Positions 3,155-22,890 of a DNA stretch of 32,000 nucleotides are shown piece after piece; positions within the stretch are counted from its first letter, which is position 1, and each line of letters opens with the position of its first letter. The notes under the pieces are model-generated. The model did no database searches. It was not told the origin of the DNA and saw only the letters and a list, made by a program, of their open reading frames with translations. The stretch spans positions 360,001 through 392,000 of the forward strand of contig CP001848.1 of assembly GCA_000025185.1 (NCBI GenBank), in the 5' to 3' direction. The stretch is from Pirellula staleyi DSM 6068 (lineage in GTDB: Bacteria; Planctomycetota; Planctomycetia; Pirellulales; Pirellulaceae). The position numbers were made by a program, and so were the translations under genes.

Positions 3155-4005
3155 GAGCCAGTTATTGACTTTGTCTGTAGATTTTTGCGAGGAGGATCGT
3201 GAGGAAGGCGAGCCAGTGGAAGTTGGTGAGCGTGACGGTGAGTCTCTCATAATCACGCGCGAGACGGCGGAAGCGACTCAGCCAACCAAACGTGCGCTCA
3301 ACAACCCAGCGGCGTGGCAATAGGACAAAACCTCGCTTGCCCTCGGTATGTTTGACGACTTGTAGTCTTATAGAAGATGCCTTGGCTTGATCAGCTGCGG
3401 AATCAACTGTATAGCCTTGGTCCACATAGGCAATCTCCACGTTGCTGCCCGTCACCTCTTGCACTCTCTGCGAGAGGATGGCGACTTGGTCGCGGTCTTG
3501 CTCATTGGCTGCAGTGATGTAAACCGCCAGCAGATTTCCCAGTGTATCGACGGCAATATTGGCCCTTCTTTTTCTTCGCGCCGTCGTATCCCGCGCGGCC
3601 TCCACTTTCAGGAGTCGATTGCAGCGTTCGAGCATCCATGATCACAGCGGTTGGCTGTTCGTCACGTCCTTCCAAAAGACGCACCATCAGCCTGAGGTCT
3701 TGCGCAATTTCCTCAAAGACTCCCGCTTCGAACCAGCGTCGCATTTGTTGATAGACGGCCCGCCACGGAGGCATTTCATGCGGCAGGAAGTCCCACTGGA
3801 TTCCTGTTTTCACCACGTAGCGCATGGCGTTAAACTGGTCGCGCAGTGAATAGGCGCGCTGCGGCACATCCTCGCGCATGAGGCTCAAATAGGGGAGCAG
3901 GAATTCTCACTACGCATCCGTTACGTCGCTGGGATACGACTTCCCTGTCGTGTGTTTCATCCCCTAACTACAGCAATTGCAAGCAGATAAGTCAATAACA
4001 GGCTC
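3155..4005 (-). mobile_element. IS5-superfamily insertion sequence, copy 1 (851 bp, decayed)
   Basis: Imperfect terminal inverted repeats GAGCC(A/T)GTTATTGACTT lie at 3155-3171 and 3989-4005, each end flanked by TA. The body is near-identical to 19644-20494 and 31529-32000. Confidence 0.9.
3162..3960 (-). pseudogene. IS5-family (DUF4096 + DDE) transposase, inactivated
   Basis: The translation starts MKHTTGKSYPSDVTDA and then hits TAG TGA, where copies 2 and 3 read GAG TGG (EW). It also lacks the 8 nt present in copy 3 (junction 3562/3563), which splits the gene into two frames. The C-terminal part keeps VDTLGNLL, YVDQGY and RRWVVERTFGWLSRFRRLARDYERL. Confidence 0.85.
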
Positions 4006-4200: not shown

Positions 4201-4726
4201 GTTGAAAACCGCAGACAAGGTAAACATGAAACGTGCACCCTAAGCCGTGTCCGTCTAACGACGGGGGTTTCACGGAAAGGGAAACCTTGCCTAAAGCAGC
4301 GAAGGTTACTCCGTCTTCGGTAGCTGAGCGGTTTCGGCAATGACCTTCTGCATTAAGTATTCCGATACGGTGTATCGCTTTAGTTGATTCATAAAGTCGC
4401 TGTGAAACTGTTCCGGGACATGATCGAAGCTCTGCACATCGATGTTGCACCGCTGCCTTGAACCGCCTTGCGCAGTTCGTCGCAGCGCCAGAACGGGCAG
4501 CTATGAAGGTTACCGCAGAGGAACCAGTGACTGAACGGATCAAGCAGCAGATGGATGAAGTGCAGTGCGAAAAGCCGCAACGGGCAGCGGGTTGGGCAAG
4601 GTAGCTCCCCACGCGGCCTCCTTGCAGTCCGTTTTCATCACGGCAACAATGTGCACGCGGTTTGCGGCAATCGGTATTGCCTCCGTTTTCCAGATACGCC
4701 GCTTACCATTCAGATGTGAGTTCAGC

Positions 4727-7147
4727 ATGACGACCGAATGGCTCGCCGATGACGCACACAAGGCATTTCGAGCGTTCCTCACTACGATCAAACCAGACGA
4801 GGACATCAACGAAGCAGCGACGAGGTTGCGGTTCATCGACGATATTCTGATCAAGGTTCTGCAATGGGACAAGAACCATGTTTGGCCAGAATCACATGTC
4901 AAAAACGTCGGCTATATCGACTATGAGTTCAATAAGCCACGCCCCTCCTTGATTCTGGAGGCGAAGAGTGTGGACAAAACCTTTATACTTCCCGGTTACG
5001 AGTATCCCGCGGAGCCGGTTCCATTTAGCCTGATTGCAAGCGAATGCAAGGAGGCCGCCGCAGCGCTTACGCAGTGCCAAAACTATGCTAACAAGCGTGG
5101 TGCCCGCTATTCCGCCATTTCGAACGGCCACCAATGGCTGTTGTCGATGACGTTCGTCCAAAACGAACCCGTCGAAGATCGGCTGGTGTATGTCTTCGAG
5201 TCGTTGGACGCGATCAACAAGAAGTTCAGAGCATTCTTTGAATGCTTCGGGCCTATGGCGATCCGGTCAAACCAACCGAGTATGAAGCTTTTAGACGCTC
5301 GTCGCGCGCCAGCTCCCGCAAAATTCTCCACGACAATCCCTGGCTATCCTGTCGCCGCCGACCGTAATTCCTTGGCACCTTCGGTCGGCGGATTGCTGCA
5401 ACTTATCTGGGAGGCCATTGATGGCGATCAGGACAATGAGCTCTTTCTGCGCAGTTGCTACATTCCCTCGGCACCCTCTTCGGACATGTTGAAAAAGGCT
5501 CACACCTTGCTGTCCCAGCGGGCCACAACTGACGAGCAGCTGGCTGCAGCCGATGTTAAACCAGCGACTCGGAGGTCGGTCCTCGAACATCAGGACCGAT
5601 CAGACCGCGAACAACCAGTAGTGATCCTAGGACGAATTGGACACGGCAAATCCACGTTCCTGAAGTACCTGAGACACATCGAGGCCAAAGACATACTGTC
5701 TAGTAAGTATCTTCAGATTGACCTCAATTTCCTGCGCACCCCCGCAACGGCTGCCGAAGTACCTAATTTTGTAATGAGGCGAGTTCAAGAGCAGCTGAAG
5801 GGGTACGGAATCGAATACGCGGACGATCCTTTCGTTCGGAGGGTTCTGAAACGCGAGTTGAATGACTTCCGGAAGTCACCGCGAGGAGTGCTGTTAAAGG
5901 AAAAGCCAGATGAACTTCGGGAGGCGGAGGTAGACTTCCTTGAAACGTTCACCAACGACGCTGAACGATACATGGCTCTAGTGATGAAGTTTATCCGTCG
6001 ATCGCATCACAAGTCGGTAGCCATTTTCTTCGACAATTTGGACCGCCGCGGTGACGACCTTCAGGAGGCGGCATTCCTGCGGGCCGCTGCGATGGCGAAT
6101 GACTGGGGAGTTCTGGTATTCGTCTGCCTTCGACCGGGGAGCGTCCAACGGTCAAGTGCGGCGGGAGTCTTGGACACCATGGCTCCACGAATGCTGGTAA
6201 TCCCGCAACCTGACATTGCCGTCGTACTCCGGAAACGCTTCCAGTACGCAAGCAAGTATGCAGGACTCAGTCTTCCTTCGGACGCCTACACCCACAATAC
6301 TTTCGGTGCAGACGCCGACAAACAGCTACCAGAGGCGTCTCGCTTCTTCGCCATGTGCGATGATTCCATCCATTCCAATCCGGTGCTTGCGGAACAGTTC
6401 GAAGCCGTATCGAACGGAAACATCCGTAGGGTAATGGAGTATGTCCAGAAAGTGATAACAAGCCGACATCTCGACACGCAAAAGATACTGGATAAGTTGG
6501 CAAAGCCGGACGGCTATACGCTTGCCGATCACGAGACAAACCGAGCATTGATATTTGGTCCATACATACACTTTGACTCACGAGAGTCTCTCTTCACGAA
6601 CCTGTTTGACATCTCGCACGCAGATCCGACCGAGCATTTTTCGCGTGTGTTCCTGCTCGACTACTGCCATCGCCACGCAAATAGCGTGACAAATCACGGC
6701 TACATCCCGGTCACGACGCTCCAAGAGTATATGGCGTCCCTAGGCTACTCAGCCAACCATATAACTGAGTCTTTGTCACTTCTGGTTGAACGCAATTGCC
6801 TCGAAGGACAGGACGAATATCGTGACCAAGAGGAAACGCCCAAGCTCGGAGCGGACGTCCGCATCACGAGCTTGGGCAGTTTCCACATCACTACTCTGGT
6901 GCGGACCCAAGAGTATATGGACGCTATTTCCATCGACACACCGATTCTCGACGAAACAGTGCGTGCCTCGATAAAAGACGTGGAAGACATACGCAGCCGT
7001 CTCAAGCGTGCACGGGTTTTTACAGCATACCTAGCCCGTCAGGCTGAGTATTTCACGGACGCAGACGCTCGCAGGGTATTAGATGACATCTTAACGGCTG
7101 CCGCCAATGATATTACGGACATTGAGGCTGATTTGAAGAAGTCGTAA
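4727..7147 (+). CDS. PD-(D/E)xK (type I restriction HsdR-N-like) nuclease domain fused to a P-loop NTPase and a C-terminal helical domain
   Basis: N-terminus: ..INEAATRLRFIDDILIKVLQW..VGYIDYEF..PSLILEAKS..LTQCQNYA..YSAISNGHQW. This is the D..ExK core plus the QxxxY / NG..W pattern typical of HSDR_N-type nuclease domains. Walker A GRIGHGKST is at nt 5630-5656 and the Walker-B-like VAIFFDNLD follows. I prefer the ATG at 4727 over the GTG at 4565, because the upstream 54 codons overlap decayed sequence. Confidence 0.75.
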   Translation: MTTEWLADDAHKAFRAFLTTIKPDEDINEAATRLRFIDDILIKVLQWDKNHVWPESHVKNVGYIDYEFNKPRPSLILEAKSVDKTFILPGYEYPAEPVPFSLIASECKEAAAALTQCQNYANKRGARYSAISNGHQWLLSMTFVQNEPVEDRLVYVFESLDAINKKFRAFFECFGPMAIRSNQPSMKLLDARRAPAPAKFSTTIPGYPVAADRNSLAPSVGGLLQLIWEAIDGDQDNELFLRSCYIPSAPSSDMLKKAHTLLSQRATTDEQLAAADVKPATRRSVLEHQDRSDREQPVVILGRIGHGKSTFLKYLRHIEAKDILSSKYLQIDLNFLRTPATAAEVPNFVMRRVQEQLKGYGIEYADDPFVRRVLKRELNDFRKSPRGVLLKEKPDELREAEVDFLETFTNDAERYMALVMKFIRRSHHKSVAIFFDNLDRRGDDLQEAAFLRAAAMANDWGVLVFVCLRPGSVQRSSAAGVLDTMAPRMLVIPQPDIAVVLRKRFQYASKYAGLSLPSDAYTHNTFGADADKQLPEASRFFAMCDDSIHSNPVLAEQFEAVSNGNIRRVMEYVQKVITSRHLDTQKILDKLAKPDGYTLADHETNRALIFGPYIHFDSRESLFTNLFDISHADPTEHFSRVFLLDYCHRHANSVTNHGYIPVTTLQEYMASLGYSANHITESLSLLVERNCLEGQDEYRDQEETPKLGADVRITSLGSFHITTLVRTQEYMDAISIDTPILDETVRASIKDVEDIRSRLKRARVFTAYLARQAEYFTDADARRVLDDILTAAANDITDIEADLKKS

Positions 7148-7149
7148 TA

Positions 7150-8145
7150 CGGACTCTTCCTAACTTGACTTCGCACGGGCCCGTTGTGCGTCTCGGCCAT
7201 CCGACGACGCCTCCCATAGAAAGTTCTTGACGAGGGCAATCGTCCGCGATAGGTTCGGCTCACGCATGGGCAATTCTGCCCGGTGAAGTATGGAGAGCCG
7301 GGCTGGAATCGGCTAGACACTGATGGGCCTATCTGGATAGAAGAACCGAACACGCTAAACGGTTTAGTTTCGTCGTCGAAGCGGACCTTCTCAAGAAAGA
7401 AGTAAAGCCCGATTGGACGGGGTTCCATGCGGATAACGTCGGCAATCGATCGGCTTTTTAGCCTCCGGCGAGTAGCTTCCGAGTTATAGCCTCTACCCCC
7501 CACGATAGCCTGCGGTCGGCGATGTCGCCGATGCATGCTGAGTTCGCAATTCGCAATCAGCTTTTCGAACTCGGTCGACTCGTGACTTTGACCAGCGGTC
7601 GCCGTGACACCGAGCACAATTCCATTGCCATCGGTGAGCAAGTGCAGTTTGGTAAAATAGCCTCCGCGCGAGTAGCCAATCGCATTTAAATCGTCGTTCT
7701 CTGGGCTTTTTGACAGCATTCCCGAAGCACATCGATGGGCCCGCACGACACTGCCGTCGATGCACCAGCGCTGTCGGCTGATCTTGCCTCGGGTGTCGAG
7801 CAACTTCAGTGGTACGCGATTGATCGAGTCCCATAATCCACTGCAGGTCCAGCGCCGGAAGCGGTTGTAAGCTGTCTGCCACTTGCCTAGTTCCGCTGGC
7901 ATATCCCGCCACGGGGCACCTGTTTTGAGAACCCACAGGATGGCATTGATGGTCGTGCGATGATCAGCCCAGGGGCGTCCGGGATGGCCTGTTTTCGCCT
8001 TGGGCGAGCAGAGGTCGTATTGCGTTAAACTCTCGATCCGTGAGAAGATGTCGCAGCATTTGGCATCCCTGTTTGAGTCACCGTGGTAAGTAACTCAGGC
8101 AGGTTGCCAAATGCCCTTTTCAAAGGTCAATTAAGAGACAGCGCC
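7150..8145 (-). mobile_element. third IS5-superfamily element (DUF4096 + DDE transposase), frameshifted and decayed
   Basis: On the minus strand the start at 8058 gives MLRHLLTDREFNAIRPLL. A frameshift follows, then ..GRPWADHRTTINAILWVLKTGAPWRDMPAELGKWQTAYNRFRRW..DGSVVRAH..GYSRGGYFTKLHLLTDGNG..TAGQSHES..GGRGYNS. The C-terminal third has lost similarity. A terminal sequence CTGTCTCTTAATTGACC (complement of 8125-8141) has a degenerate partner GACTCTTCCTAACTTGAC at ~7152-7169. Ends are approximate. Confidence 0.6.
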
Positions 8146-8187: not shown

Positions 8188-9849
8188 ATGCCTGACTCAA
8201 ATCGATCATTTTCATCACGGCACTTTCCGTATCGGAAACACGATCGCAATATCGCAGCTGATGCGGCAACGGCAGGGCTGGAATCTTCCGACGCTCCCCA
8301 GGTTCCAGCTCTAGTACCGAGGACTGTCTATCGTTTCGTTCTTGGGCAGGATCTGCGTCCAATCGCAATGAACGCAAACGACATTGGTGTATGGCTCAGA
8401 GATCCGTTTGGAAAGTTTGTTATCTCGCAAGGCCGGTTCCCTCTGACACTGCGGAAGCTACTGGAACAATTTGATAAAGCGGAGAGTCGACTAGACGAGC
8501 AGCAAAATTTTGTAGTTGCTGATGGTGGGCAGATTTTGTGGAACGCAGAGACGGAGTTCGTGGAGCGGAGCATGCGGTTCGCAATCACTCGCTTTAACGC
8601 TCAAGGCGACAGCGTATTGATCAGCACTGCGGTCCCTTTCGATTCAGAGAGCCAGTTTTTACAGCTTCTTGCATGGGACGCAAGTAATGAAGTTTTCAAC
8701 TACTACGAGCGCCGTAACGGCACTTGGATTTGGGCGGGCAACTCATATCACGCGTTGCGAGAACCCACGAGAGGTAAAGGACCGTTCGATAGCCACGTTA
8801 ACGGTTCGTTGGTAATGAAGGAGTTGAAATTTCCCTGGATGCACTGGCACAGTATGGCATCGATCATTTCGGATGACGTATTGGCCCCAAGCGATCTATT
8901 GCGAACCGATCCGATCTGGCGATCAAAGCTTGGTGCCGATGACTTCGAAATAGCGGTGGTAAGGCCTGGAATACGTAAATGGACAGAGGCCAGAACGAAA
9001 AAATTCGTCAGGGATCACTCGTCCGAAAATGCTTCCAATGCACGCGAAATACTCCGCCATCTGTTCGAAACAACCACCGTCAACTTAATCGCCTCGGGTG
9101 AACAAAGTCGCTCGATTACCGACCAGTCGTCCGTGAAGCTTCCGATCACGTTCTTTCTGAATTCTGACGTTCTGTTCGATTTGCTCGAACTTGAGCCCGA
9201 AATTGTGGTCCCGTCGGTTGCAGGGGAGTTTTATCGCGAAAGCCTTCGTACATTTGAATTCAAGCTACAGACGAATAACTTCGAGCAACCCGGCGATACG
9301 CATTTCGCTTTCATCGTTCCCGAAGCCGCCTTTGAGGACAATCTGGTAGTTGCCGAGTTGTTGAAGCAATCTGTGGTCTCAGCACGATTCGTTGCCTGCG
9401 TATTGATGGTTGATTTTGCAAATCCCATCTCCTCTTCAAGTCGCGAACTTTTACTCAAGTATATTCCTGACCGAATGGCTATACGTGATGGCGTCCTCGA
9501 CCTAGAGGCACAGTTCATAGCAAATGTTGAGGCCGCTATCAGTGAAACCGATGAATCGGATCCTGCATCGCCGGAACAGCAGTTCTTAAGCCATTGGAAC
9601 TTGGGAGACGCCTGGAAGCAGGCATTTGAGTCTCGAGTCGAAGCTTATTTTCAAGCAATCCAGCAACGTCTAGGCACTCAGCATGGGTACGATGATTACA
9701 TCAGGCTAGCCGAATCACGTCGACGCGAGTTTCGAAGGCGTCCCCTTTCTGAGTTCGATCTCACCCTTCCAGTCACCAACATCCCAGCCGATGCACCTCT
9801 GCTTCAAATGTTTGAAGATGGACGTGTCGGAATCAAGCAAGGAACCTAG
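8188..9849 (+). CDS. hypothetical protein (553 aa), first gene of the six-gene operon
   Basis: A long uninterrupted ORF with no competing ORF. It stops 3 nt before the next start. I recognise no catalytic or targeting motif. A distinctive segment is FLQLLAWDASNEVFNYYERRNGTWIWAGNSYHALREPTRGKGPFDSHVNGSLVMKELKFPWMHWHS. The start is uncertain; the alternative is the ATG at 8367 (MNANDIG..). Confidence 0.7.
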   Translation: MPDSNRSFSSRHFPYRKHDRNIAADAATAGLESSDAPQVPALVPRTVYRFVLGQDLRPIAMNANDIGVWLRDPFGKFVISQGRFPLTLRKLLEQFDKAESRLDEQQNFVVADGGQILWNAETEFVERSMRFAITRFNAQGDSVLISTAVPFDSESQFLQLLAWDASNEVFNYYERRNGTWIWAGNSYHALREPTRGKGPFDSHVNGSLVMKELKFPWMHWHSMASIISDDVLAPSDLLRTDPIWRSKLGADDFEIAVVRPGIRKWTEARTKKFVRDHSSENASNAREILRHLFETTTVNLIASGEQSRSITDQSSVKLPITFFLNSDVLFDLLELEPEIVVPSVAGEFYRESLRTFEFKLQTNNFEQPGDTHFAFIVPEAAFEDNLVVAELLKQSVVSARFVACVLMVDFANPISSSSRELLLKYIPDRMAIRDGVLDLEAQFIANVEAAISETDESDPASPEQQFLSHWNLGDAWKQAFESRVEAYFQAIQQRLGTQHGYDDYIRLAESRRREFRRRPLSEFDLTLPVTNIPADAPLLQMFEDGRVGIKQGT

Positions 9850-9852
9850 AAC

Positions 9853-10992
9853 ATGGCACTCTCCCATTTTGACCCGCCGGCATTCCTGGATGACTTCACT
9901 CAGGAACAAAAGGACGCTTGGAGCGAATGGATTTCCCAACAGATCGATGCCGCGATCGCTGGTGATCCTAACGGCTTGGAGTTCGACGCGCCTCGCGCCC
10001 AGTTCTTCAATGCGACGAAAGTAGACTTTGCCGCCGATATGGCAACGCTGGATATCGAATGGACCGCCTTTCCTCGAAACGTTCAGATCAGTTCGATCAG
10101 CGATCGCCAACGCTGGCGTCGTGCGGAAAGCAGTAGGGATCTGCAGGACGAGTACTGCGAATGGAGCGTTGAACGAGATCCGAACACGGAAAAGATTACG
10201 CGTGTCACCTTCACTTGCGAAGGCCCAGAGTACTGGCAGTTTCTCGCTGCTACATCGCCACAGAAAGTGCTTGAACTATACAAGCAGTTCGTTAGCCAGT
10301 CAGTTCAGTTAAGCGACCTGTTTTCTACGAACGGACGCTACAATCCCCGCAACGTTTGGAATAATTCATCGACTAATGGCGCGATGCATTTGATCCAACC
10401 AAACAATACGCTTGGAGCCGAGATTGAGCTTGCTGGTGGATCGAGCGTTGTACGATCGATCAATGGTCAATTGTTAACTGGCGAACGCGAATTGATCGAT
10501 TGCGGCAAGTACGGTGGCCGCGAACGGCACAGCGACCCACGGATTGGCTCCGAAGTAAACAGCCTAACGCGGCAAAAGGCTGACGTAACGTTGGCCAATC
10601 CGGTTGGCCTGTATTTTTCAAAGCTGATTACCGCTGGCTGGGAAGTTCCCAATGGTGAGGATGCTCAGAATTTCTGGAAGTATGTTCGAGGCACGGCAAG
10701 TCATCCAGTCCGCGCCGTCTTTGAAGTGCCATCTGATCGTGGTTTCGTCGTGGGAGATATCAAGATTGATGGCCGTGATATCGAGTTCGGAGCGCAGATT
10801 GCGGACAAGATCAAAATAAAGCTCATCGGCGTAGCTCACAAGTTCGGTCAAAACGCCGTAGCCCCGATGACTGGCTGTCGGCGCGTAAGGCAGCAAGTGT
10901 CGGAATCGATCGAGGCCGTTGTTCTTCAGAAAAAGCCAACCGTATCCAGCATACTGAGTCTACGGGCGGTGACTGCGCCTGCGCGGCATTAG
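9853..10992 (+). CDS. hypothetical protein (379 aa), second gene of the operon
   Basis: The ORF begins 3 nt after the previous stop. I recognise no motif. Distinctive segments are LQDEYCEWSVERDPNTEKITRVTFTCEGPEYWQFL and NGAMHLIQPNNTLGAEIELAGG. There is no signal peptide or TM segment. Confidence 0.7.
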   Translation: MALSHFDPPAFLDDFTQEQKDAWSEWISQQIDAAIAGDPNGLEFDAPRAQFFNATKVDFAADMATLDIEWTAFPRNVQISSISDRQRWRRAESSRDLQDEYCEWSVERDPNTEKITRVTFTCEGPEYWQFLAATSPQKVLELYKQFVSQSVQLSDLFSTNGRYNPRNVWNNSSTNGAMHLIQPNNTLGAEIELAGGSSVVRSINGQLLTGERELIDCGKYGGRERHSDPRIGSEVNSLTRQKADVTLANPVGLYFSKLITAGWEVPNGEDAQNFWKYVRGTASHPVRAVFEVPSDRGFVVGDIKIDGRDIEFGAQIADKIKIKLIGVAHKFGQNAVAPMTGCRRVRQQVSESIEAVVLQKKPTVSSILSLRAVTAPARH

Positions 10993-11031: not shown

Positions 11032-12195
11032 ATGGCCTATTTGACTCAGGATCAGATTCACGAGATTCATTCTCAGGCAGTGAACCGAACACCGGGACTA
11101 CTTGACGCGTGGAAACAAATGTTGATTGGTCTTCCAATCGCATATATGAGCACACTTCCGAACATTGATGGAAACAAGAACCTTGGATTGCTTGCCCAGT
11201 TGAGCACAATGAATGAGGTTGATGTCATCAAAGGTGGAGTAGTTCCTCTTGAAGTTTGGTTAAACAACGCTGCGTACTTTTCTGAGCTCTTTCCTGATAG
11301 CCAAAAACTGTACCGCGACTACGCGCGAGTCATATTGGAGAAGCGTGCTATTACGAAAAGAAACGCTACGAGCTCTTTTGATCAAACGGTGAATGCACCA
11401 TCACTGAAAGGCATGTCCGAAGTTAAGGAACGCATAATCTTCATCAATGAGATGGTTCCGTACGGTTTTGCACAAGGGGCTGTGCGAACGGGGCAGTCGG
11501 TCGCTCGCCTCATCGTTCCAAGGTTCGATGGGAAGCAACCCCGGAAACTACCCTTTACCGACGAGCAGATAAAGTACTTTGGCACGGGCTGGCTATTAGG
11601 GACTCGTCACATTGTTACGAATCATCATGTCATCAATGCAAGAGACGCTGGCGAAGCAGATGCGATTTCTGAGGACTTCAACCTTCAAGGTATTAAGACG
11701 ACCGTGCAGTTTGATTACAACCAACGGAACGCGGCCGGTGACCCGCGAAGTGTTAAGCAGGTCTCCGGGTACAACAAAGAACTTGATTATGCTGTTCTTG
11801 AACTTGAGGCTCCATCAGGGCGCGAGCCGCTTCCCGTTTTTGGAGGGCAATTTGTCCTGCCAGCTCAGTCACTTTTTCCGGTGAACTTGATCCAGCATCC
11901 AGGAGGTGAGCCAAAGAAGCTAGGTATTCGCAGCAATCTTGTGGCGGCCGTAAACGAGGTGAATCTTGCCTATTTCACAGATACCGAACCTGGTTCCTCG
12001 GGTTCTCCTGTTTGCTCGGACGATTGGTATGTACTCGCATTGCACAAAGCTTCATCTGCGTCCTATGGGGAGTTCGAGTACCAAGGCAAGCAAACGGCTT
12101 GGGTAAATCATGGAACGCGAATTGACGTTATCCTCGCAGACTTAAAGCAAAACCACTCGACTTTGTGGAATCTTATCGGCGCTAATGTGGTTTAG
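11032..12195 (+). CDS. trypsin-fold (S1-type) serine protease with N-terminal ~95-aa helical adaptor-like domain
   Basis: The catalytic triad is intact: His in GTRHIVTNHHV (H199), Asp in ELDYAVLEL (D252), Ser in TDTEPGSSGSPV (S323, nt ~11998). A GGAG lies 8 nt upstream of the ATG. N-terminal aa 4-97 are homologous to the C-terminus of the next protein. Confidence 0.9.
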   Translation: MAYLTQDQIHEIHSQAVNRTPGLLDAWKQMLIGLPIAYMSTLPNIDGNKNLGLLAQLSTMNEVDVIKGGVVPLEVWLNNAAYFSELFPDSQKLYRDYARVILEKRAITKRNATSSFDQTVNAPSLKGMSEVKERIIFINEMVPYGFAQGAVRTGQSVARLIVPRFDGKQPRKLPFTDEQIKYFGTGWLLGTRHIVTNHHVINARDAGEADAISEDFNLQGIKTTVQFDYNQRNAAGDPRSVKQVSGYNKELDYAVLELEAPSGREPLPVFGGQFVLPAQSLFPVNLIQHPGGEPKKLGIRSNLVAAVNEVNLAYFTDTEPGSSGSPVCSDDWYVLALHKASSASYGEFEYQGKQTAWVNHGTRIDVILADLKQNHSTLWNLIGANVV

Positions 12196-12206
12196 GAGGT
12201 TCTGCT

Positions 12207-13412
12207 GTGGCCATTATTATCCCGGAGATACGAGAGCTGGAATCAATTGTTCACCAGATGCGGCCGGCCTTGCGTGTTTCGAAAAATAGATTTGAACGCT
12301 CGCCAATCGGCTGGGAAGAACTGGACGCACATCGAGAATCGATCGAACGAGCCCTCCAGGCAACTGGGCGACTCGAATCGGACGATCCGTCGGTGCCCTA
12401 TTTTGGTACAGCATTTCTCGTTGGTGACGGAATAGCCCTAACCACACGTCATGTTGTGGAGTTGTTTGCGAATGGGCATGGCGAAACAGATCTAAACATC
12501 AAACGCCACCGCAAAGTATGGATTAATTTCAATGCCGAAACAGAAGGCGACACTAGCGAAGTTGCCTATGTGACCGGCATTGAATTCATTCATCCTTACT
12601 GGGATGTTGCGGCGATTCGGGTAGAAACATCGCGGGGTGGACTTGTACTTGAGTCCGCTCCTTCCACCGCGAATACTAATATAACGGTAATCGGTTACCC
12701 AGCTTTGGACATGCGGTCTGACTTAGACATCCAGCTAAGGATCTTTGAATCCGTATTCAACGTCAAACGCTTGCTCCCAGGAAGACTAGGTGGCGAAGAA
12801 TTGATTGAGTCCTACGGCAACAACGTGCTGGCGCTAACCCATGATGCTTCCACTTTAGGCGGTACTGCTGGCGCTCCGGTTATTGACATACGATCTGGCC
12901 ATGTCGTGGGAATTAACTTTGCAGGCGTATATCTGAAAGCTAACTACGCGGTCCCGTCATGGAAATTGATGCAAGATTCACGAGTTAGACGGCATCTTGG
13001 CTTTCTAGAGCCACCATGGATGAACCTTTGGGAAAAGCCTATTCAACCACTTAACTTGAAAGAGAATCCGGCGTGGACCGTAATTTCTGGGCAGGCAATT
13101 AGGAATCATGAGGCCTACCTTACCCACGATCAAGTCTTGGATCTTTGCCGACTTTTGGTAGGTGCCTTTCCTACAGATGAAAGCATTGCATCGCTGTTTC
13201 TGGGCATTGCTCCAGAAATCGTCGCCTCGCTACCTAGCGGTAACAATCCGAAGGAGAAATTGCTAAATCGACTTCAAGCGTTAAATAACATCGGTCGCAT
13301 CATAGGTGGTCAGTCACCGCTGCAATTGATATTGAAAACGGCAGCATTGCTAAGGGAGTCGTTTCCAGACGAACAGATCTTGCAGCAGTACCTAGCAATT
13401 GTAAGTAAATAA
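12207..13412 (+). CDS. trypsin-fold pseudoprotease (nucleophile Ser replaced by Ala) with C-terminal adaptor-like domain
   Basis: GTG start with a strong AGGAGG 8 nt upstream. His is retained (ALTTRHVVE, H82) and Asp is retained (YWDVAAIRVE, D133). The GxSGxP motif reads GGTAGAP, with Ala221 encoded by GCT at 12867-12869. C-terminal aa 305-401 match the N-terminal module of the preceding protease. Confidence 0.88.
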   Translation: MAIIIPEIRELESIVHQMRPALRVSKNRFERSPIGWEELDAHRESIERALQATGRLESDDPSVPYFGTAFLVGDGIALTTRHVVELFANGHGETDLNIKRHRKVWINFNAETEGDTSEVAYVTGIEFIHPYWDVAAIRVETSRGGLVLESAPSTANTNITVIGYPALDMRSDLDIQLRIFESVFNVKRLLPGRLGGEELIESYGNNVLALTHDASTLGGTAGAPVIDIRSGHVVGINFAGVYLKANYAVPSWKLMQDSRVRRHLGFLEPPWMNLWEKPIQPLNLKENPAWTVISGQAIRNHEAYLTHDQVLDLCRLLVGAFPTDESIASLFLGIAPEIVASLPSGNNPKEKLLNRLQALNNIGRIIGGQSPLQLILKTAALLRESFPDEQILQQYLAIVSK

Positions 13413-13478
13413 TCATTGTCACTCCTAGTCAACCAAGATAGCTCATTTACAAGACTCAGTCACGGAATCTGAAGGTTT

Positions 13479-15398
13479 ATGCCAAGACTCTTGCAACAAA
13501 AACATCGGCTTCACAAGATACTTATCGAATGCAAACTAGGGGATTCGGTTGATTTGCTCGTTTCATCAATCAACTCAAGCGTTCGTGCCCAATTGCCAAA
13601 TGAAGATATCCCAGCAAAGCGATTGCTGGGGATAATTGATTTCCTATGCGAGTATGATCTGCCAAAAAACAGCGCAGACCCCCTGGTTCAATTTCTGCAA
13701 CGAGTCGTTCACCTCTTGGATCAGTATCCAGACCAATGTGAAGAGGTCAAAGTGTTTTTATTGAGCCTTTCGACAAGAGATACTGAACTCAATAATACGC
13801 AACACGATTCGTCAACGGACAACGCACCCGCTGGGCATCATCCTGCTATTGGCGTTCTCGTCATCGCTACAACTCATGTGGAGCTCGACGCAATGAAGTC
13901 GAGTCTCAATGTTTCGGACCGCCTGTCGATTGGCACGTTGGAGTATTGGCACGGCACAGTCGGGGGGCTTGAAATTGCAGTCACGCAAAGTGTTCCGCCT
14001 GAGGGAATTGTGATTCTTCAGGAAACGCTTCAACCTTCTGCAGTAATCTATGTATGCCCAGTAATTTGTCTAAAGAAGCAACCTAAAGACCAAGCACATA
14101 CTATCCTTGCAAGTACTTTGCATGAGAATCCTAAGCAGGCCTCTCGGACTCGTTCGTTGCGACTGTGTGACGCAATGACATCGTACATGGCAAGAACTTT
14201 GCCGTCTGGGAGATACGCAAATGTAGTTGAGATTCTTGATATACCGCAATGGGAACAACTAAACCCCGCGGCGCTACAGCATGTAAAATTGTCGTTTGTT
14301 GTGGCCTCAGACAATTCGATTCTAAGTTTACTGAAGGAAATCGACTCACCTGTTGCTTTGCTTGGCTCGGTGGTATGGAGGCATGAGCCCCGATCTGAAA
14401 AAATACCAACACTGCAGGAAATCTTGGGCTCTGAAGCCCACCATATAGCGTCTGAAGCATCTGGCAGTATTTTGCATGAGATATTATCCACCGAGAGCTG
14501 TCCGTATAAGAACGCCGAACGGGTGCTATCGGTCGACAGTTCACATCCCGGAGCATTAGACGTTTGGATACGATCACCAAGCGACGCTGATGACGTCAAG
14601 CCGTTTGTGAATCGAGCTCAATTCCGGACTGATCTTGTTAGACTACTTCGTCCTGGCAATCCGCGAACTATGGTAGTCAGCGGTGAGGAGGGCTCGGGGA
14701 AATCATTTTTATTTGAGTTCCTTATGCACCTTCACATCACGAACGTTGTGCGGGCAAATATCATCCCAATACAGTTGCCGAAGGAGTCACGTCCTCCTGA
14801 ATGGACTTGGAGAAAGCTGATGCAACTCTTGTGTGAAGGGCTTAAAATTCAAAGATTGGCGATAGATGAGTTCCACGACCCAAGCGAGTTTGTGTCCCGA
14901 TATCTTGTGAGAACGATAAGCCCAAGCAGCAGCAAAAGTTTCGAGAGCATGCCGGCAAGACATCAAGCAAACATATTTGTCTTCGACGGTTTTGCGAGGC
15001 AAGGCTTTAGCCCTGATATTTATGACACCCTTCTCGCGCTGGAAGATGCTATTGCGAGTTGTGCCCTTCCGAACTTTCGATGTTTAGTTCTTGGTTGCAA
15101 TGCACATACTTTGTTGCGGGACAGCCCGTCGCGAATTGTGCGTACTTACAAGGTTGACGATGTTCCTGAGGCCGCAGATATAGATGGATTTATTGCGCAC
15201 TTTTCTCGTCAACATAACGTTGCACCAAGCCCAGAAGCTATACAGACTTTTCGCGAGACAATATCTTTTAACGTTGCTGCTGTAGATGAACGGCTCGGAG
15301 CTGCCGAGCGGCACATCCGAATGCTTAAGGTGAATTCAATTTTTCTGAGGGCATCACAGCTGCTCCTCGCTCAGTCAAGTACAATTGGAGGTGTATAG
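13479..15398 (+). CDS. P-loop NTPase with N-terminal adaptor-like domain and a possible degenerate nucleoside-phosphorylase-like middle domain
   Basis: Walker A GEEGSGKS is at nt 14682-14705 and the Walker-B-like NIFVFDGF follows. N-terminal aa ~5-95 share the LP..LL..PL..L..(Y/F)PDxQ pattern with both proteases. The segment AIGVLVIATTHVELDAMKSSL..EYWHGTVGGLEIAVTQS resembles the start of PNP_UDP-type phosphorylase folds, but the later glycine-rich motifs are not evident. Confidence 0.75.
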   Translation: MPRLLQQKHRLHKILIECKLGDSVDLLVSSINSSVRAQLPNEDIPAKRLLGIIDFLCEYDLPKNSADPLVQFLQRVVHLLDQYPDQCEEVKVFLLSLSTRDTELNNTQHDSSTDNAPAGHHPAIGVLVIATTHVELDAMKSSLNVSDRLSIGTLEYWHGTVGGLEIAVTQSVPPEGIVILQETLQPSAVIYVCPVICLKKQPKDQAHTILASTLHENPKQASRTRSLRLCDAMTSYMARTLPSGRYANVVEILDIPQWEQLNPAALQHVKLSFVVASDNSILSLLKEIDSPVALLGSVVWRHEPRSEKIPTLQEILGSEAHHIASEASGSILHEILSTESCPYKNAERVLSVDSSHPGALDVWIRSPSDADDVKPFVNRAQFRTDLVRLLRPGNPRTMVVSGEEGSGKSFLFEFLMHLHITNVVRANIIPIQLPKESRPPEWTWRKLMQLLCEGLKIQRLAIDEFHDPSEFVSRYLVRTISPSSSKSFESMPARHQANIFVFDGFARQGFSPDIYDTLLALEDAIASCALPNFRCLVLGCNAHTLLRDSPSRIVRTYKVDDVPEAADIDGFIAHFSRQHNVAPSPEAIQTFRETISFNVAAVDERLGAAERHIRMLKVNSIFLRASQLLLAQSSTIGGV

Positions 15399-15400
15399 TG

Positions 15401-18376
15401 ATGGCTAAAGTGGATCTGACTGTTGAACTTTTCGCCGACTCTGGCCGCCCTCGATCTCGTGGTCATTTTTTCGAGGCAGCTTCTTTACTTACAAGCTTTC
15501 TACCAGCGCAGCTTCGCGCAGCCGATGGCAGCTTAATCGATCGTCAATCGTTAGATATTCTAGCGCGTAATTGTGATACGACCGGTTCGGAATGGATACT
15601 TGACGATGCTGTTCGTCGCGACGAAATCCATGCCCTTGAGTCTCTAGAAGTGCCCATATCGATTTGGAAAAACAACGCGGAGAATTGTCCGGATGACCCG
15701 GTTCAAAAGATGCTTCAGCAGGTCGTGCGAGAATCTGTGAAAGTGGACGAATTGGATTCTACTCAGTTATCGTCTCTACTAAGAGTCCTTTCTTGGTTTG
15801 GTACCTCACTCATCAGCAAATCGCTTCGGCTGCCAAGTATTGATGAAGTCCGTGCAGAGTTCGGATATAAGACTTGGTGTGATCGTTTGACGCGCTACCG
15901 CACACCAGACTTCTTAGGTCGTGAACAAGAAATGGACGAACTCTATCGATTTATGGTTAGCCCACTTTCTTTTTCGGCAACTGTTTGGGGGGTTGGTGGG
16001 GTAGGTAAAACAGCCTTGCTCTCAAATTTTGTCCTTGAACACTGCTTGAATTCTGAAGCTCGAAGGCCATTTGCTTGGTTTGACTTTAACCGTAGTGACT
16101 TACTTAATGCGGAGTCACCAAATTCACTTCTTCTCGAGGCCGCTTCGCAACTGTCGCAACAGAGAATTGTCTCTGTAGGTACGCAATCGGAAATTGAAGA
16201 TTTCTGCAGAGACATGATCGATGGCCCAATCATTAGCCGCCAGCTACTCACGTCCCAGCAAATCATACGCTTTGGCAAAATTCTTCAGAGTTCTGGTACA
16301 TCAGGTATAGAGTATATATGGGTGCTTGATAGCTTGGAAGAACTTCTCGAAACTGCTCCAGGTTTCATTGACTATATCACAGCGTATCTCGAGGAGCTTC
16401 GCGAAATCATACCTCAGCTGCGGGTTTTCTTCGTTGGTCGTAGCCAGTACTTCGGAGATACGTCGGTTCGACGTGAGCTGCACCTCCAATGTCTTGAGCT
16501 TAGTCTTGCAAGGGAGTTCCTGGAAAGAGGCGGTGTTCCAGAAGCAGAATCTTTATTCATCGCGAATGCATGCGGAAAACACCCACTGCGATTATCGCTA
16601 GCGGCAAGCATTTATCGCCAAGCGATGAAGGATCGCCAAAGTGGTTCTCCATTTGAGCAATTGAGATTCCTGTCAACTACTTTACCGAAAGGCTCAGAAA
16701 AAACATTGTTTCTTCGGTTTCTTGAACATCTTCACGACGATGATATCAAGAGACTTGTAGCGCCGGGCTTCTTGGTGCGGAGAATAACACCACTGGTTAT
16801 CGAGAAGATACTAGCTGAGCCGTGTGGTCTTGAGGTTAGAAGTGCGGTTGAAGCGACCGCCGTTTTTCAAAAGCTGATTAGAGAAGTCTCACTAATCGAG
16901 TCTGTCGACGACGAGACTGCGGTGCTGCGGCGAGACGTGCGCAAGGAATTGTTGCCTCTTATTCGCAGTGCATTCAATCACGAAGCCAATGCCATCCATA
17001 CATCCGCTATAGAATTCTACCGTTTTCGTCGAAATGACGAATCAAGAGCAGAGGAAGTTTACCACCGTTTAATGATTGGAACTGATGCCAGAACATTAGA
17101 TCGATGCTGGCGACCATCGCTAGCTGAAAGACTGGTTGGTAGCATTGACGAAATGCCGTTTCGGTCGCAAGTTTACCTTGCTAGGAAAACGGGAAGAGGT
17201 ACTACGGTGCCAACGGATTATTTCTCTGATCGAGCGGACAATTTCGACTGGGAATGGAGAGTCGCAAGTCGTGCAAGATCATTGCTCGATCACGATGAAC
17301 CTGAGAAAGCGATCGCACTAGTGCGCGAGCGAGATTTTCGTAGCCCTACCAGTCCACTTTACGTCATTGAGTCTAGAGCTTTGCGACGACTAGGAAAACT
17401 GGCGGAGGGGCGTCGAATACTCGAGAATGCGGCCAACAAACTAGCTTCGCTTACCAATTTTGGAACGAATGCGGATAGAGGGCATGCTATCGAGTTGTTG
17501 CTTAGTTTCTTTTGGATAGAACTCGATTGTTCGGAATGCCTGTCGGCCCGCGAGACATTGGACGATCTTTGCAAGTTGATTGGCTTTAAGACCGATCTTA
17601 TCGAGGTTTGCAATAACGAAAAGCCAGTTTTGCATTTAGAAATATTGCTCCGTTCGATTGCCTTGAGTAAGAAATGTCCTCAGCAGTCGTCCGTGGTTGA
17701 TCGGGACCTCGCTTACCGCAAAGCGCACGAAATACTTAGCGATGAGGAGATATTGGAAGATCATGATTTTGAGGATTCGCCGAAGATGTTCCGTCGCTTG
17801 GCAGCGGAAGTATGTTGGAATGATGTAAAAGTTGTTTCCCGTGTCGTCAGGAATTCCGGTATCGGCACTCCCTACCCGTTGGCGTGTGAGGTTCTTGGTG
17901 AAGAGATTGCTAGGTGGTCGTCGGGGCGATTTGAATTGGAAACCCTCGGACCAATACCAGTCGATTGCAACAGGCCGAGTGTTTGGAAACATTGGTTTAT
18001 GCGAGCGTCTTCTTCTTCGATAAGCGATTCATTTTCACGATTAATTGAATCTAGAGAGCCTCCGCGAAAAGTCATGGAAGCTGTTCGCGACTTGCTCCTG
18101 TTGTCTGATGAAGGGCCTAGAACCGAAGGAGATATAGAATACCTAAAAGATATCGCAATGGCGCAAAACGAGCGTTTACAACTAAGAAAACACCTTCGCC
18201 ACTATGGACACTCACCTGAGAAGATTAGGCACCTTTTTAGTTCTGGCTTTGGTTTGAGTTCCTATGATGTAATCTCGAAAAACGAAATCGATGCTCCTGT
18301 ATTGATCCGCGAGATTGCCTCATGGAGCGTTCGGTTTGGCCTTGCCAACCGTTTGCTCGATTCAATCAATGAATGA
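15401..18376 (+). CDS. STAND-type (NACHT/NB-ARC-like) NTPase with C-terminal helical (TPR-like) repeats
   Basis: FLGREQEMDELYRF..VWGVGGVGKTALLSNF gives Walker A at nt 15989-16012, followed by Walker B YIWVLDSLEELLE. The C-terminal ~450 aa are helix-rich, for example AIEFYRFRRNDESRAEEVYHRLM and EKAIALVRERD..LGKLAEGRRILENAANKL. The start is the ATG at 15401 (or the GTG at 15398), abutting the previous stop at 15396-15398, with GGAGG at 15387-15391. Confidence 0.88.
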   Translation: MAKVDLTVELFADSGRPRSRGHFFEAASLLTSFLPAQLRAADGSLIDRQSLDILARNCDTTGSEWILDDAVRRDEIHALESLEVPISIWKNNAENCPDDPVQKMLQQVVRESVKVDELDSTQLSSLLRVLSWFGTSLISKSLRLPSIDEVRAEFGYKTWCDRLTRYRTPDFLGREQEMDELYRFMVSPLSFSATVWGVGGVGKTALLSNFVLEHCLNSEARRPFAWFDFNRSDLLNAESPNSLLLEAASQLSQQRIVSVGTQSEIEDFCRDMIDGPIISRQLLTSQQIIRFGKILQSSGTSGIEYIWVLDSLEELLETAPGFIDYITAYLEELREIIPQLRVFFVGRSQYFGDTSVRRELHLQCLELSLAREFLERGGVPEAESLFIANACGKHPLRLSLAASIYRQAMKDRQSGSPFEQLRFLSTTLPKGSEKTLFLRFLEHLHDDDIKRLVAPGFLVRRITPLVIEKILAEPCGLEVRSAVEATAVFQKLIREVSLIESVDDETAVLRRDVRKELLPLIRSAFNHEANAIHTSAIEFYRFRRNDESRAEEVYHRLMIGTDARTLDRCWRPSLAERLVGSIDEMPFRSQVYLARKTGRGTTVPTDYFSDRADNFDWEWRVASRARSLLDHDEPEKAIALVRERDFRSPTSPLYVIESRALRRLGKLAEGRRILENAANKLASLTNFGTNADRGHAIELLLSFFWIELDCSECLSARETLDDLCKLIGFKTDLIEVCNNEKPVLHLEILLRSIALSKKCPQQSSVVDRDLAYRKAHEILSDEEILEDHDFEDSPKMFRRLAAEVCWNDVKVVSRVVRNSGIGTPYPLACEVLGEEIARWSSGRFELETLGPIPVDCNRPSVWKHWFMRASSSSISDSFSRLIESREPPRKVMEAVRDLLLLSDEGPRTEGDIEYLKDIAMAQNERLQLRKHLRHYGHSPEKIRHLFSSGFGLSSYDVISKNEIDAPVLIREIASWSVRFGLANRLLDSINE

Positions 18377-19643: not shown

Positions 19644-20494
19644 GAGCCTGTTATTGACTTATCTGCTTGCAATTGCTGTAGTTAGGGGATGAAACACACG
19701 ACAGGGAAGTCGTATCCCAGCGACGTAACGGATGCGGAGTGGGAATTCCTGCTCCCTTACTTAAGCCTCATGCGCGAGGATGTGCCGCAGCGTTCCTATT
19801 CACTGCGCGACCAGTTTAACGCCATGCGCTACGTGGTGAAAACAGGAATCCAGTGGGACTTCCTGCCGCATGAAATGCCTCCGTGGCGGGCCGTCTATCA
19901 ACAAATGCGACGCTGGTTCGAAGCGGGAGTCTTTGAGGAAATTGCGCAAGACCTCAGGCTGATGGTGCGTCTTTTGGAAGGACGTGACGAACAGCCAACC
20001 GCTGTGATCATGGATGCGCGGACACTCCAATCGACGCCTGAAAGTGGTGGCCGCGCGGGATACGACGGTGCGAAGAAAAAGAAGGGCCAATATTGCCGTC
20101 GATACACTGGGAAATCTGCTGGCGGTTTACATCACTGCAGCCAATGAGCAAGACCGCGACCAAGTCGCCATCCTCTCGCAGAGAGTGCAAGAGGTGACGG
20201 GCAGCAACGTGGAGATAGCGTACGTCGATCAAGGCTATACGGGCGCCGCAGCAGCCGAGCAGGCTGAAGCATCCTCGATAAGATTACAAGTTATAAAACA
20301 TACCGAGACCAAGCGAGGCTTTGTCCTATTGCCACGCCGCTGGGTTGTTGAGCGCACCTTTGGTTGGCTGAGTCGCTTCCGCCGTCTCGCGCGTGATTAT
20401 GAGAGACTCACCGTCACGCTCACCAACTTCCACTGGCTCGCCTTCCTCACCATACTCCTCGCAAAAATCTACAGACAAAGTCAATAACTGGCTC
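19644..20494 (+). mobile_element. IS5-superfamily insertion sequence, copy 2 (851 bp)
   Basis: Terminal IRs GAGCCTGTTATTGACTT (19644-19660) and AAGTCAATAACTGGCTC (20478-20494) are flanked by TA on both sides. Same element as 3155-4005 and 31529 onward. Confidence 0.92.
19689..20487 (+). pseudogene. IS5-family transposase split into two frames by an 8-nt deletion (orfA 19689-20147, orfB-frame 20014-20487)
   Basis: orfA has the DUF4096-type N-terminus (YPSDVTDAEWEFLLPYL..KTGIQWDFLPHEMPPWRAVYQQMRRW). The orfB frame has the DDE part (ANIAVDTLGNLL..YVDQGY..RRWVVERTFGWLSRFRRLARDYERL). Compared with copy 3, 8 nt are missing at 20086/20087, so the two halves sit in frames 0 and +1. Confidence 0.85.
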
Positions 20495-22583: not shown

Positions 22584-22890
22584 TTGTAATTGCTGATATT
22601 TCTACCGCCAAAACCGTGCCTTTCCCGCACCAGCGTGCTATGGATTGCAGCCTCAGAACTTGCTCTCTGTTCATCGGAATTAGAGGGAAGAAACGCACCG
22701 CCTCTCGCTGACAGTCCGGCTGCCATCGGGAGGTCGGTGATGCCAACAGGTTCTCAGTTGGTTTACCTCCAGCTTCTCTCCTTCGGCCCTGTGCGGTCGA
22801 GTCCCCGGTTGCCTTGTTGGGCATCCAGTGGCTCGGCTGCGTCAGCCGGGCGGTTTCTCACGTAACCGTGTTTCGAAAAGGAGAGTCATC

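Follow-up and report, generated by a model that had tools for sequence, protein, structure and literature searches.

Why would a bacterial operon encode, immediately downstream of a trypsin-like protease with an intact catalytic triad, a second trypsin-fold protein in which the nucleophilic serine is replaced by alanine? This question is raised by a 32,000-nucleotide stretch of the genome of Pirellula staleyi DSM 6068 (contig CP001848.1, positions 360,001 to 392,000; hereinafter, the window, to which all coordinates refer unless another locus is named), where an earlier note, made from the sequence alone, reported such a pair of genes. We denote the upstream protease P1 (protease-1, Psta_0285) and the downstream protein P2. 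The analysis described below places P2 in a conserved family of putative pseudoenzymes and suggests, with an estimated probability of about 0.6, that P2 is a non-catalytic partner or regulator of the neighboring P1, tethered through the EAD5 adaptor. The features of the P2 gene are as follows (aa, amino acids; pLDDT, predicted local distance difference test score):

12207 to 13412, plus strand: P2 gene, encoding a putative 401-aa pseudoprotease that consists of a trypsin-fold domain, a linker and a C-terminal EAD5.
12194 to 12199, plus strand: Shine-Dalgarno sequence AGGAGG, which overlaps the TAG stop codon of P1 (12193-12195) and lies 7 nt upstream of the GTG start.
12207 to 12218, plus strand: conserved N-terminus of P2, M-A-I-I, delineated by comparison with homologs.
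12261 to 12992, plus strand: trypsin/S1-fold domain, residues ~19-262, with the Pfam Trypsin_2 match spanning 67-236.
12450 to 12452, plus strand: H82, the catalytic His position, within the motif TTRHV that begins at residue 79.
12603 to 12605, plus strand: D133, the catalytic Asp position, within the motif WDVAAI that begins at residue 132.
12864 to 12869, plus strand: T220 (ACT) and A221 (GCT, 12867-12869), within the motif GGTAGAP that begins at residue 218.
12915 to 12917, plus strand: N237, which aligns with His213 of chymotrypsin.
12993 to 13115, plus strand: linker, residues ~263-303, with pLDDT below 50 at residues 267-296 of the AlphaFold2 model.
13116 to 13406, plus strand: C-terminal EAD5 adaptor, residues 304-400, a predicted six-helix bundle (domain model pLDDT 92).

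P2 belongs to the trypsin-like fold of the PA clan (family S1) by both sequence and predicted structure. The match to Trypsin_2 (PF13365; E=3.7e-13) scores 50.9 bits against a cut-off of 27.6, and in the AlphaFold2 model, which has a mean pLDDT of 76.5, most of the trypsin domain lies between 70 and 94; the best folds retrieved with Foldseek were Rv3671c, HtrA1, DegP, Spl and Esp (E of ~1e-9, target-normalized template modeling (TM) scores of 0.6-0.74). The C-terminal match to EAD5 (PF19957) has a score of 51.9 bits, for a cut-off of 27, with E=8.8e-14, and covers positions 1-98 of the 135 in the model. The public name of P2, 'Peptidase S7 flavivirus helicase (NS3)', is misleading, with neither an S7 nor a helicase signal found. 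The GTG start codon is supported by the AGGAGG sequence and by the conservation of the N-terminus among orthologs. Only 11 bp separate the P1 and P2 genes and the Shine-Dalgarno sequence overlaps the P1 stop codon, which makes translational coupling of the two genes likely. Scans for promoter-like sites (6, compared to 11.7 expected) and terminator-like sites (14, compared to 13.6 expected) were uninformative.

The active site of P2 is as the earlier note described it. In a profile alignment, the GGTAGAP motif of P2 falls on GGNSGSP of the V8 protease (1qy6), and the column of A221 is occupied by Ser in 108 of the 120 aligned homologs; the Ser-to-Ala replacement at the nucleophile position, with the codon GCT, is thus exact, as are the positions of H82 and D133, which match the His and Asp that the active relatives invariably have. 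P2 accordingly contains the equivalents of His57 and Asp102 of the S1 peptidases and Ala221 in place of the Ser195 nucleophile. The S1 pocket of glutamyl endopeptidases is incomplete as well: T216 corresponds to residue 190, and residue 237, the counterpart of 213, is Asn. Judging by these residues, P2 is predicted to be unable to perform serine catalysis.

The loss of catalytic residues extends far beyond P. staleyi. A profile search against 1.84 billion representative sequences yielded 3,937 matches; the matches listed were grouped by domain architecture, not by the state of the triad, and thinned to less than 60% identity, and the following descriptive counts refer to these. His, Asp and Ser are all intact in 77 of the 79 N-terminally extended relatives without EAD5, compared to 3 of the 30 representatives of the Trypsin-EAD5 clade that includes P2 and none of the four proteins that start with MAII and lack EAD5 (tandem double pseudo-domains). 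Within the Trypsin-EAD5 clade, His is retained in 15, Asp in 19 and Ser in 6 of the 30 representatives, and the nucleophile position is occupied by A, G, S or T; the equivalent of His213 is His in 12 of the 30, versus 77 of the 79 extended relatives. The preceding position, 220, is similarly variable across the clade (T in 21, S in 4, M in 2, A in 2, C in 1, G in 1). The codons for Ala at position 221 differ by locus (GCT, GCG, GCA); where Ser is retained, its codon is TCN. The earlier note had asked whether the alanine is shared by homologs or specific to the strain, and the loss proves to be clade-wide. Nor do the orthologs uniformly carry Ser, which, according to the note, would have pointed to a recent mutation or an error: in the nearest full-length orthologs, which represent the P. 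staleyi subclade, x in the motif GGT-x-GAP is A three times and S, G and T once each, and some of these proteins lack His or Asp, too.

In a rough neighbor-joining tree, the Trypsin-EAD5 clade is monophyletic and the triad losses are scattered, with the states (His, Asp and Ser positions) HDA, HDG, HDT and HDS in the P. staleyi subclade, HDS in the Bradyrhizobium/Rhizobium subclade, and FGS, YGG, SDG and NKG elsewhere. Therefore, catalysis ceased to be required at, or close to, the emergence of the clade and was then eroded independently in different lineages. Across the clade, this erosion is restricted to the catalytic and S1 positions. Of the 243 columns of the P2-type domain, 44 are conserved in at least 80% of the sequences, and R19-P20, R55, D168, R170, P191-G192, H212-D213, G222 and G231 are conserved at or near 100%. 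The P2-type open reading frames (ORFs) are intact in both Planctomycetota and Alphaproteobacteria. The orthologs are at most 52% identical, and synonymous sites are saturated. With catalytic residues lost throughout the clade while the ORF, the fold and particular residues are conserved, the P2 clade is, on this sequence evidence, a pseudoenzyme family, neither an error nor a private mutation.

Several relatives depart from the typical organization. The HDS subclade is represented by Bradyrhizobium sp. USDA 4472 (locus L056, 8135-9673), Rhizobium ruizarguesonis (locus L057, 8149-9645), P0133 and P0143; its proteins contain the motif SGTSGAP or SGTSGAA and an additional domain of ~100 aa after EAD5, and would be natural comparators for P2. 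Tandem degenerate trypsin proteins of ~650-700 aa (for example, with the states IGG and YQG) are encoded in L043 (1375-3462) and L053 (1840-3243) and represented by P0126, P0134, P0138 and P0158; they begin with MAI[IV], have no detectable EAD5 and, in L043 and L053, directly follow a gene for a P1-like protease. The metagenome contig L044 carries two tandem P2-type genes (3-1175 and 1240-2559; HDA and WDA, respectively), both with EAD5.

The second observation that requires explanation is the persistent association of P2 with an active protease, the domain organization of which mirrors that of P2:

11032 to 12195, plus strand: P1, with EAD5 at residues 3-148 (E=3.8e-43) and Trypsin_2 at residues 184-337 (Pfam).

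The triad of P1 is intact (TNHHV, LDYAVL and GSSGSP, with Ser323 encoded at 11998-12000), and the motif TEPGSSGSPV, quoted in the earlier note, is found at residues 318-327. The note also described P1 and P2 as paralogs that carry the same adaptor at opposite ends: the placement of the adaptor stands, and the term 'paralog' applies only loosely, the trypsin domains being 26% identical over 95 aa (E=1e-4). An EAD5-Trypsin_2 gene is located directly upstream of the P2-type gene, on the same strand, in all nine contexts seeded with P2 (the window, a Ca. Kuenenia metagenome-assembled genome, three Logan contigs, Mesorhizobium neociceri, two JGI contigs and L046), at a distance of 9-61 bp where DNA is present; the pairing of an active protease with a dead partner, which the note had proposed, is thus conserved. 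Among four loci seeded with P1, three contain a P2-type gene 12-32 bp downstream. His, Asp and Ser are retained (TNHHV, D, G(S/G)SGS) in all seven partner proteases that were aligned, namely, P1 of the window, five EAD5-bearing orthologs and the P1-like gene of L043, and the motif G[GS]SGS[PA] is retained in 115 of 120 P1 homologs. Locus by locus, the identity between P2 orthologs follows that between P1 orthologs, at values 6-17 points lower. The loci L042 and L059 share genes for an Endonuclease_NS protein (~800 aa), an EAD5 protein (~550 aa), a Trypsin-Endonuclease_NS protein (~690 aa) and P1, and P2 is present in L042 only, so that these loci offer a natural comparison of P1 with and without P2. 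P1 contains, between EAD5 and the protease domain, an E-[KR]-[IV]-[IL]-F motif (11425-11445, residues ~132-138), which is found in 66 of the 120 P1 homologs, 50-51 residues upstream of the GTGW strand, and resembles the effector-type E-A-I-V motif discussed next; it might be a processing site at which the protease is freed from the adaptor.

The origin of P2 is suggested by its nearest active relatives, which are proteases fused to Endonuclease_NS, Endonuclease_1, Lipase_3 or TIR domains and show 41-48% identity to P2. About 98% of these have Thr at the position equivalent to 190, which, together with His213, forms the pair of S1 residues (Thr/Ser190 and His213) of Glu-specific endopeptidases (PMC5508998). 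In 212 of 213 active relatives, an N-terminal extension of ~70 aa is closed by the motif E-[AS]-[ILV]-[ILV], typically, LEAIVLP, located just upstream of a shared R-P motif. The start of the P2-type proteins coincides with this E-A-I-V motif, where the initiator Met takes the position of Glu, so that all 33 clade representatives begin with M/L-A-[ILV]-[ILV] (MAII in 21 and MAIV in 7). The N-terminal codons differ synonymously between loci and, therefore, selection acts on the protein. Putatively, the active relatives are zymogens that are processed after Glu, and the P2-type proteins would be made already 'processed'. The P. staleyi P2 itself combines the N-terminal MAII with an internal LESIV copy of the motif (MAIIIPEIRE-LESIVHQM-RPA).

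Downstream of P2, two genes for NTPases complete a co-directional run that extends, with P1 and P2, from 11032 to 18376:

13479 to 15398, plus strand: 639-aa P-loop NTPase with an EAD5-like N-terminus (residues ~8-103) and the Walker A motif GEEGSGKS.
15398 to 18376, plus strand: 992-aa STAND-type NTPase with weak AAA_16 and FxSxx_TPR-like matches, the start of which overlaps the preceding stop.

The EADs have been described as homotypic coupling adaptors encoded on adjacent genes (Kaur et al. 2020; PMC7159879), and the EAD5 of P2 fits this description, with a terminal match above the threshold and a second copy encoded in the adjacent P1 gene. The similarity of the N-terminus of the 639-aa NTPase to EAD5 is weak (Pfam E=0.028, below the threshold; BLAST against the P2 EAD5, 3e-4; hidden Markov model derived from P1, 0.0013). 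An EAD5-like N-terminus of ~90 aa is found on the gene that follows P2 in L001 (11245-12597) and L004 (9262-10116), as well as in the window (13479-13778), and the C-terminal modules of these proteins differ, being a P-loop NTPase in P. staleyi and, in the other two loci, parts of a 450-aa protein with a faint leucine-rich repeat match and of a 284-aa protein. All PDB matches of the EAD5 domain model have E of at least 2.4 and none is bacterial CARD-like; the best TM-score is 0.51, with the CARD-like domain of DR6 (2dbh, E=6.3). The 992-aa STAND-type NTPase is presumed to be a sensor or a hub, and the combination of trypsin-like peptidases with a STAND NTPase in one operon is the one that characterizes the NucA-trypsin/CARD-NLR systems.

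The clade-wide loss of catalytic residues and the conserved pairing lend good support to the class of explanations offered in the earlier note, namely, that P2 is a regulator, a scaffold or a decoy. Within this class, we favor the reading that P2 is an EAD5-tethered, non-catalytic partner or regulator of P1. P2 would descend from the protease domain of the nuclease-fused or lipase-fused 'effector' proteases of NucA-trypsin/CARD-NLR-type conflict systems. In the P2 lineage, the N-terminal extension of ~70 aa would have been lost, such that translation now starts at the E-A-I-V motif as M-A-I-I; the C-terminal toxin domain would have been lost as well, the EAD5 adaptor gained, and selection on the catalytic and S1 residues relaxed, with the fold and many surface residues remaining under constraint. 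P2 would be co-translated with P1, the EAD5-tagged protease with an intact triad, homotypic EAD5 contacts would gather both proteins on the NTPase hub, and P2, in the 'processed' conformation and itself non-cutting, would gate or direct proteolysis by P1. The residue states, the erosion throughout the clade, the synteny and the common adaptor are observed, whereas the physical association of P1, P2 and the NTPase, the loss of activity and the direction of regulation are inferred. The P1/P2 cassette is probably a part of a bacterial self-defense module.

Several points weigh against this reading. The full triad is present in a few members of the clade, namely, P0004 and the Bradyrhizobium/Rhizobium subclade, and these may still be enzymes, in which case the family would be 'catalysis-optional' rather than uniformly dead. 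With the His213 equivalent eroded as well, continued binding of a specific peptide by the cleft becomes less plausible. The contrasts in triad retention (Fisher tests) are descriptive only, the sequences being phylogenetically related, and residues 1-14 of P2 have pLDDT below 50 and thus no confident position in the AlphaFold2 model. Rhodopseudomonas sp. AAP120 (L059) encodes P1 without P2, with the other genes as in L042, and, because of this, P2 is not obligatory for P1 loci. Pairing of EAD5 with EAD5, through which P1, P2 and the NTPase would bind one another, is itself a published inference. Finally, a nuclease-protease or lipase-protease effector and an identified substrate are absent from the window.

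In a more novel reading, which we consider unlikely, P2 would be a 'born-mature' zymogen mimic, in which the strictly conserved free N-terminus (Ala-Ile-Ile after the removal of Met) would be functional in cis or in trans. In the cis version, the N-terminus would lock the dead cleft of P2 itself in the activated conformation; in the trans version, the more novel of the two, it would insert into P1 and complete the S1 or activation pocket there. P1 would then remain off until P2 is placed alongside by EAD5 contacts at the NTPase hub, a case of non-proteolytic zymogen activation within a bacterial immune module. A corollary is that the active nuclease-fused and lipase-fused relatives would be zymogens cut after Glu at LE|AIV.

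The alternatives to P2 being a partner or regulator of P1 differ in how they fare with this evidence. One of the two that survive best, although we regard it as unlikely, turns P2 into a bridge to effectors of the trypsin-nuclease or trypsin-lipase type, which lack EAD5; P2 would bind these proteins or their pro-regions and dock them by P1 for cleavage and activation. The similarity of the P2 domain to Trypsin-Endonuclease_NS, Trypsin-Lipase_3 and Trypsin-TIR proteins (41-48% identity) is compatible with such binding, effectors are encoded no more than a few genes away from the pair in L001, L003, L004, L042, L046, L057 and L058, and the active relatives have the S1 residues of Glu-specific endopeptidases and a conserved LE|AIV motif that is a plausible cleavage site after Glu. 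However, the P. staleyi window contains no such effector, the Mesorhizobium pair stands alone, and dimerization of trypsin domains has nothing in its favor here; the protease domain of LypC, an active protein with the same Trypsin-Endonuclease architecture, gave no two-hybrid interaction (PMC13236601).

Similarly unlikely is a role of P2 as a decoy or a dominant-negative brake that would mimic the processed effector protease and sequester substrates, partners or phage inhibitors, thereby setting an activation threshold or serving as bait. Dominant-negative and decoy roles have been proposed for inactive enzyme domains (Kaur et al.; PMC7159879), and the 'born-mature' N-terminus without a pro-region, the faster evolution of P2 compared to P1, as expected of bait in an arms race, and the two tandem P2-type genes of L044 all are consistent with this possibility. 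Yet, the S1 and catalytic residues, which a faithful mimic should keep, are precisely those that erode, the tight coupling to P1 and not to the effectors fits a partner of P1 better, and neither an inhibitor nor a target of the bait is known.

A direct activation of P1 in trans, by insertion of the free A-I-I terminus of P2 into the P1 protease domain so as to complete its S1 or activation pocket, appears still less probable. It would account for the conservation of the extreme N-terminus in all 33 clade members, at the protein level, and for the fact that P1, with EAD5 fused at this end, has no free N-terminus of its own; in addition, T318 of P1 is located at the Thr190 equivalent and the His of its 'ALHKAS' motif, as aligned by eye, may correspond to His213. 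Staphylocoagulase and streptokinase set a precedent for such activation. Against this, action in cis is the simplest assumption for this motif in the active relatives, the low-confidence prediction for residues 1-14 of P2 provides no structural support, and L059 contains P1 without P2.

Residual hydrolysis by P2, with Thr220, as the earlier note suggested, or a different residue as the nucleophile, is very improbable. H82 and D133 are kept in the P. staleyi subclade, T220 is shared by 21 of the 31 representatives, and Thr nucleophiles operate in other hydrolase folds; yet, other members have S, M, A, C or G at position 220, 15 of the 30 representatives lack His and 11 lack Asp, and position 221 tolerates A, G, S and T, as if only small size counts. 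Moreover, position 220 corresponds to residue 194 of chymotrypsin, the side chain of which is directed away from His57, so that Thr220 as an alternative nucleophile is supported neither at the level of the clade nor by the S1 geometry. A sequencing error, a strain-specific mutation or a decaying functionless gene can be dismissed even though GCT is one substitution away from TCT, given that the genome is finished, orthologs from unrelated assemblies carry GCT, GCG or GCA at a position where A, G, S and T all occur in the clade, and intact ORFs, conserved motifs and synteny persist across phyla.

With P2 retained as the putative partner of P1, the genomic surroundings show where the P. staleyi locus differs from its counterparts. 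Domain searches of the large ORFs of the window revealed no nuclease, lipase, gasdermin, additional trypsin or additional EAD5 gene. In orthologous loci, Trypsin-Endonuclease and Trypsin-Lipase proteins, along with further EAD5 proteins, often neighbor the P1-P2 pair, and NucA/Endonuclease_NS, lipase or gasdermin effectors are present in L001, L003, L004, L042 and L056-L059. PADLOC and NCBIfam yielded no system assignment for the window, only generic protease-domain matches (RT-Protease_XI, the 'nacht' model and PDC-M35A). Two ORFs upstream of P1 were considered as effector candidates and excluded, the second belonging to a separate family (PF26676) that is absent from orthologous cassettes: a 553-aa ORF without a family match (8188-9849, plus strand) and, starting 4 bp after it, a 379-aa ORF (9853-10992, plus strand). 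The 379-aa family comprises 1,267 matches, with 56-91% identity among the matches listed, which come, among others, from Pyrinomonadaceae, Azospirillum, Sinorhizobium, Bradyrhizobium and Vitiosangium, and its Pfam tag is precomputed. Further out, the region looks mobile, with three genes or fragments of IS4/5-type transposases, a DUF932 protein, a Rep (ORF2/G2P)-like protein and a large serine recombinase (3162-3635 and 7039-7902 on the minus strand; 19689-20487, 22828-23724, 28078-29439 and 29003-31105 on the plus strand). An 860-aa STAND-type NTPase with weak AAA_16, ATPase_2 and nSTAND5 matches is encoded at 4565-7147 (plus strand), and a transposase lies between it and the cassette.

Elements of this organization have been described. 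EAD5 was defined, and EAD-coupled as well as inactive trypsin effector domains were reported, by Kaur, Burroughs, Iyer and Aravind (2020; PMC7159879), who found trypsin domains occupying the effector positions of vWA-MoxR systems to be nearly all inactive; among the literature matches listed for 'EAD5', only this paper concerns the protein domain. The P. staleyi operon resembles the NucA-trypsin System 3 of these authors in that the same adaptor is encoded on adjacent genes together with an NTPase, there are several trypsin paralogs per operon, and the nearest relatives of P2 are Trypsin-Endonuclease_NS fusions. Unlike System 3, which employs EAD1 and bDLD2, it employs EAD5 and, in the window, lacks a NucA nuclease. 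The cassette of a live EAD5-Trypsin and a dead Trypsin-EAD5, with the truncation at EAIV, is absent from the main text and the searched portion of the supplement of PMC7159879, and this portion of the supplement contains no match to EAD5, Pirellula or Psta. Thus, the conserved live/dead cassette, its descent from an effector-type protease and the EAIV truncation appear to be new, with no earlier description found. The family comprises about 30-35 clusters at 50% identity, from Planctomycetota, Alphaproteobacteria and metagenomes.

The closest functional parallels come from NLR-like systems. The Lysobacter gasdermin CARD-NLR operon (Wein et al. 2023; PMC10312443) and Caulobacter LypABC (PMC13236601) each encode two consecutive trypsin-like proteases and a STAND/NLR-like ATPase, with an adaptor domain on a protease and on the ATPase; the same kinds of genes are found here, with a putative EAD5-like adaptor on the P-loop NTPase. 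LypC shares the Trypsin-Endonuclease architecture with the closest active relatives of P2, a likeness of architecture rather than of compared sequences. In contrast to the CARD-NLR systems, the adaptor in P. staleyi is EAD5, with no significant match to CARD structures, and the window contains no gasdermin, nuclease or lipase effector. Given that the EAD5 model has no significant PDB match to a death/CARD fold, the P1/P2 locus is not assigned to the CARD-NLR systems. In the Lysobacter operon, the active site of the first of the two proteases is dispensable for defense (PMC10312443); that protease has an active site, which was mutated in the test, whereas P2 naturally lacks the nucleophile. Bacterial NLR/STAND protease cascades are actively studied as prokaryotic counterparts of inflammasomes, and their two-protease operons raise the question of what the second protease is for. 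In the P2 family, where the second protease is dead by nature and has the same adaptor as its live neighbor, the knockout of catalysis has, in effect, already been made by evolution. Should P2 turn out to be no more than a passive relic in many of these systems, what remains would be a correction of annotation.

Among the glutamyl endopeptidases of family S1B, V8, BIGEP and Esp are relatives of P2 in sequence and fold, and the active relatives of P2 keep the equivalents of their Thr190 and His213 (PMC5508998). The mature N-terminus of these enzymes is functionally important, and its hydrophobic character is conserved (PMC5508998). P2 differs from them in that the His213 position is taken by N237 and the Ser195 position by Ala, and in being cytoplasmic, with no signal peptide or pro-peptide. 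The contrast between MAII in the P2 clade and LE-AIV in its active relatives offers a concrete hypothesis for the activation of the widespread trypsin-nuclease and trypsin-lipase effectors.

A degenerate trypsin-fold protein encoded near an active trypsin-like protease is also known in MamO and MamE, where the pseudoprotease MamO activates, in a non-catalytic manner, MamE-dependent proteolysis (Hershey et al. 2016; PMC4794232) and where pseudoproteases arose repeatedly. Unlike P2, these proteins are HtrA-like, membrane-bound and involved in biomineralization, without an EAD adaptor or an NTPase, and MamO has gained metal binding.

The P2 clade thus may provide a clean system for understanding how dead protease homologs tune bacterial immune proteases. 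In eukaryotes, dead partners tune immune and death proteases in at least two settings, cFLIP-L with caspase-8 and the insect clip-domain serine protease homologs with PAPs. These are unrelated lineages and, in the case of cFLIP, an unrelated fold, so the analogy to P2 is one of logic only: in each of these eukaryotic cases, a dead relative that carries the recruitment domain of the live protease is brought to the same platform.

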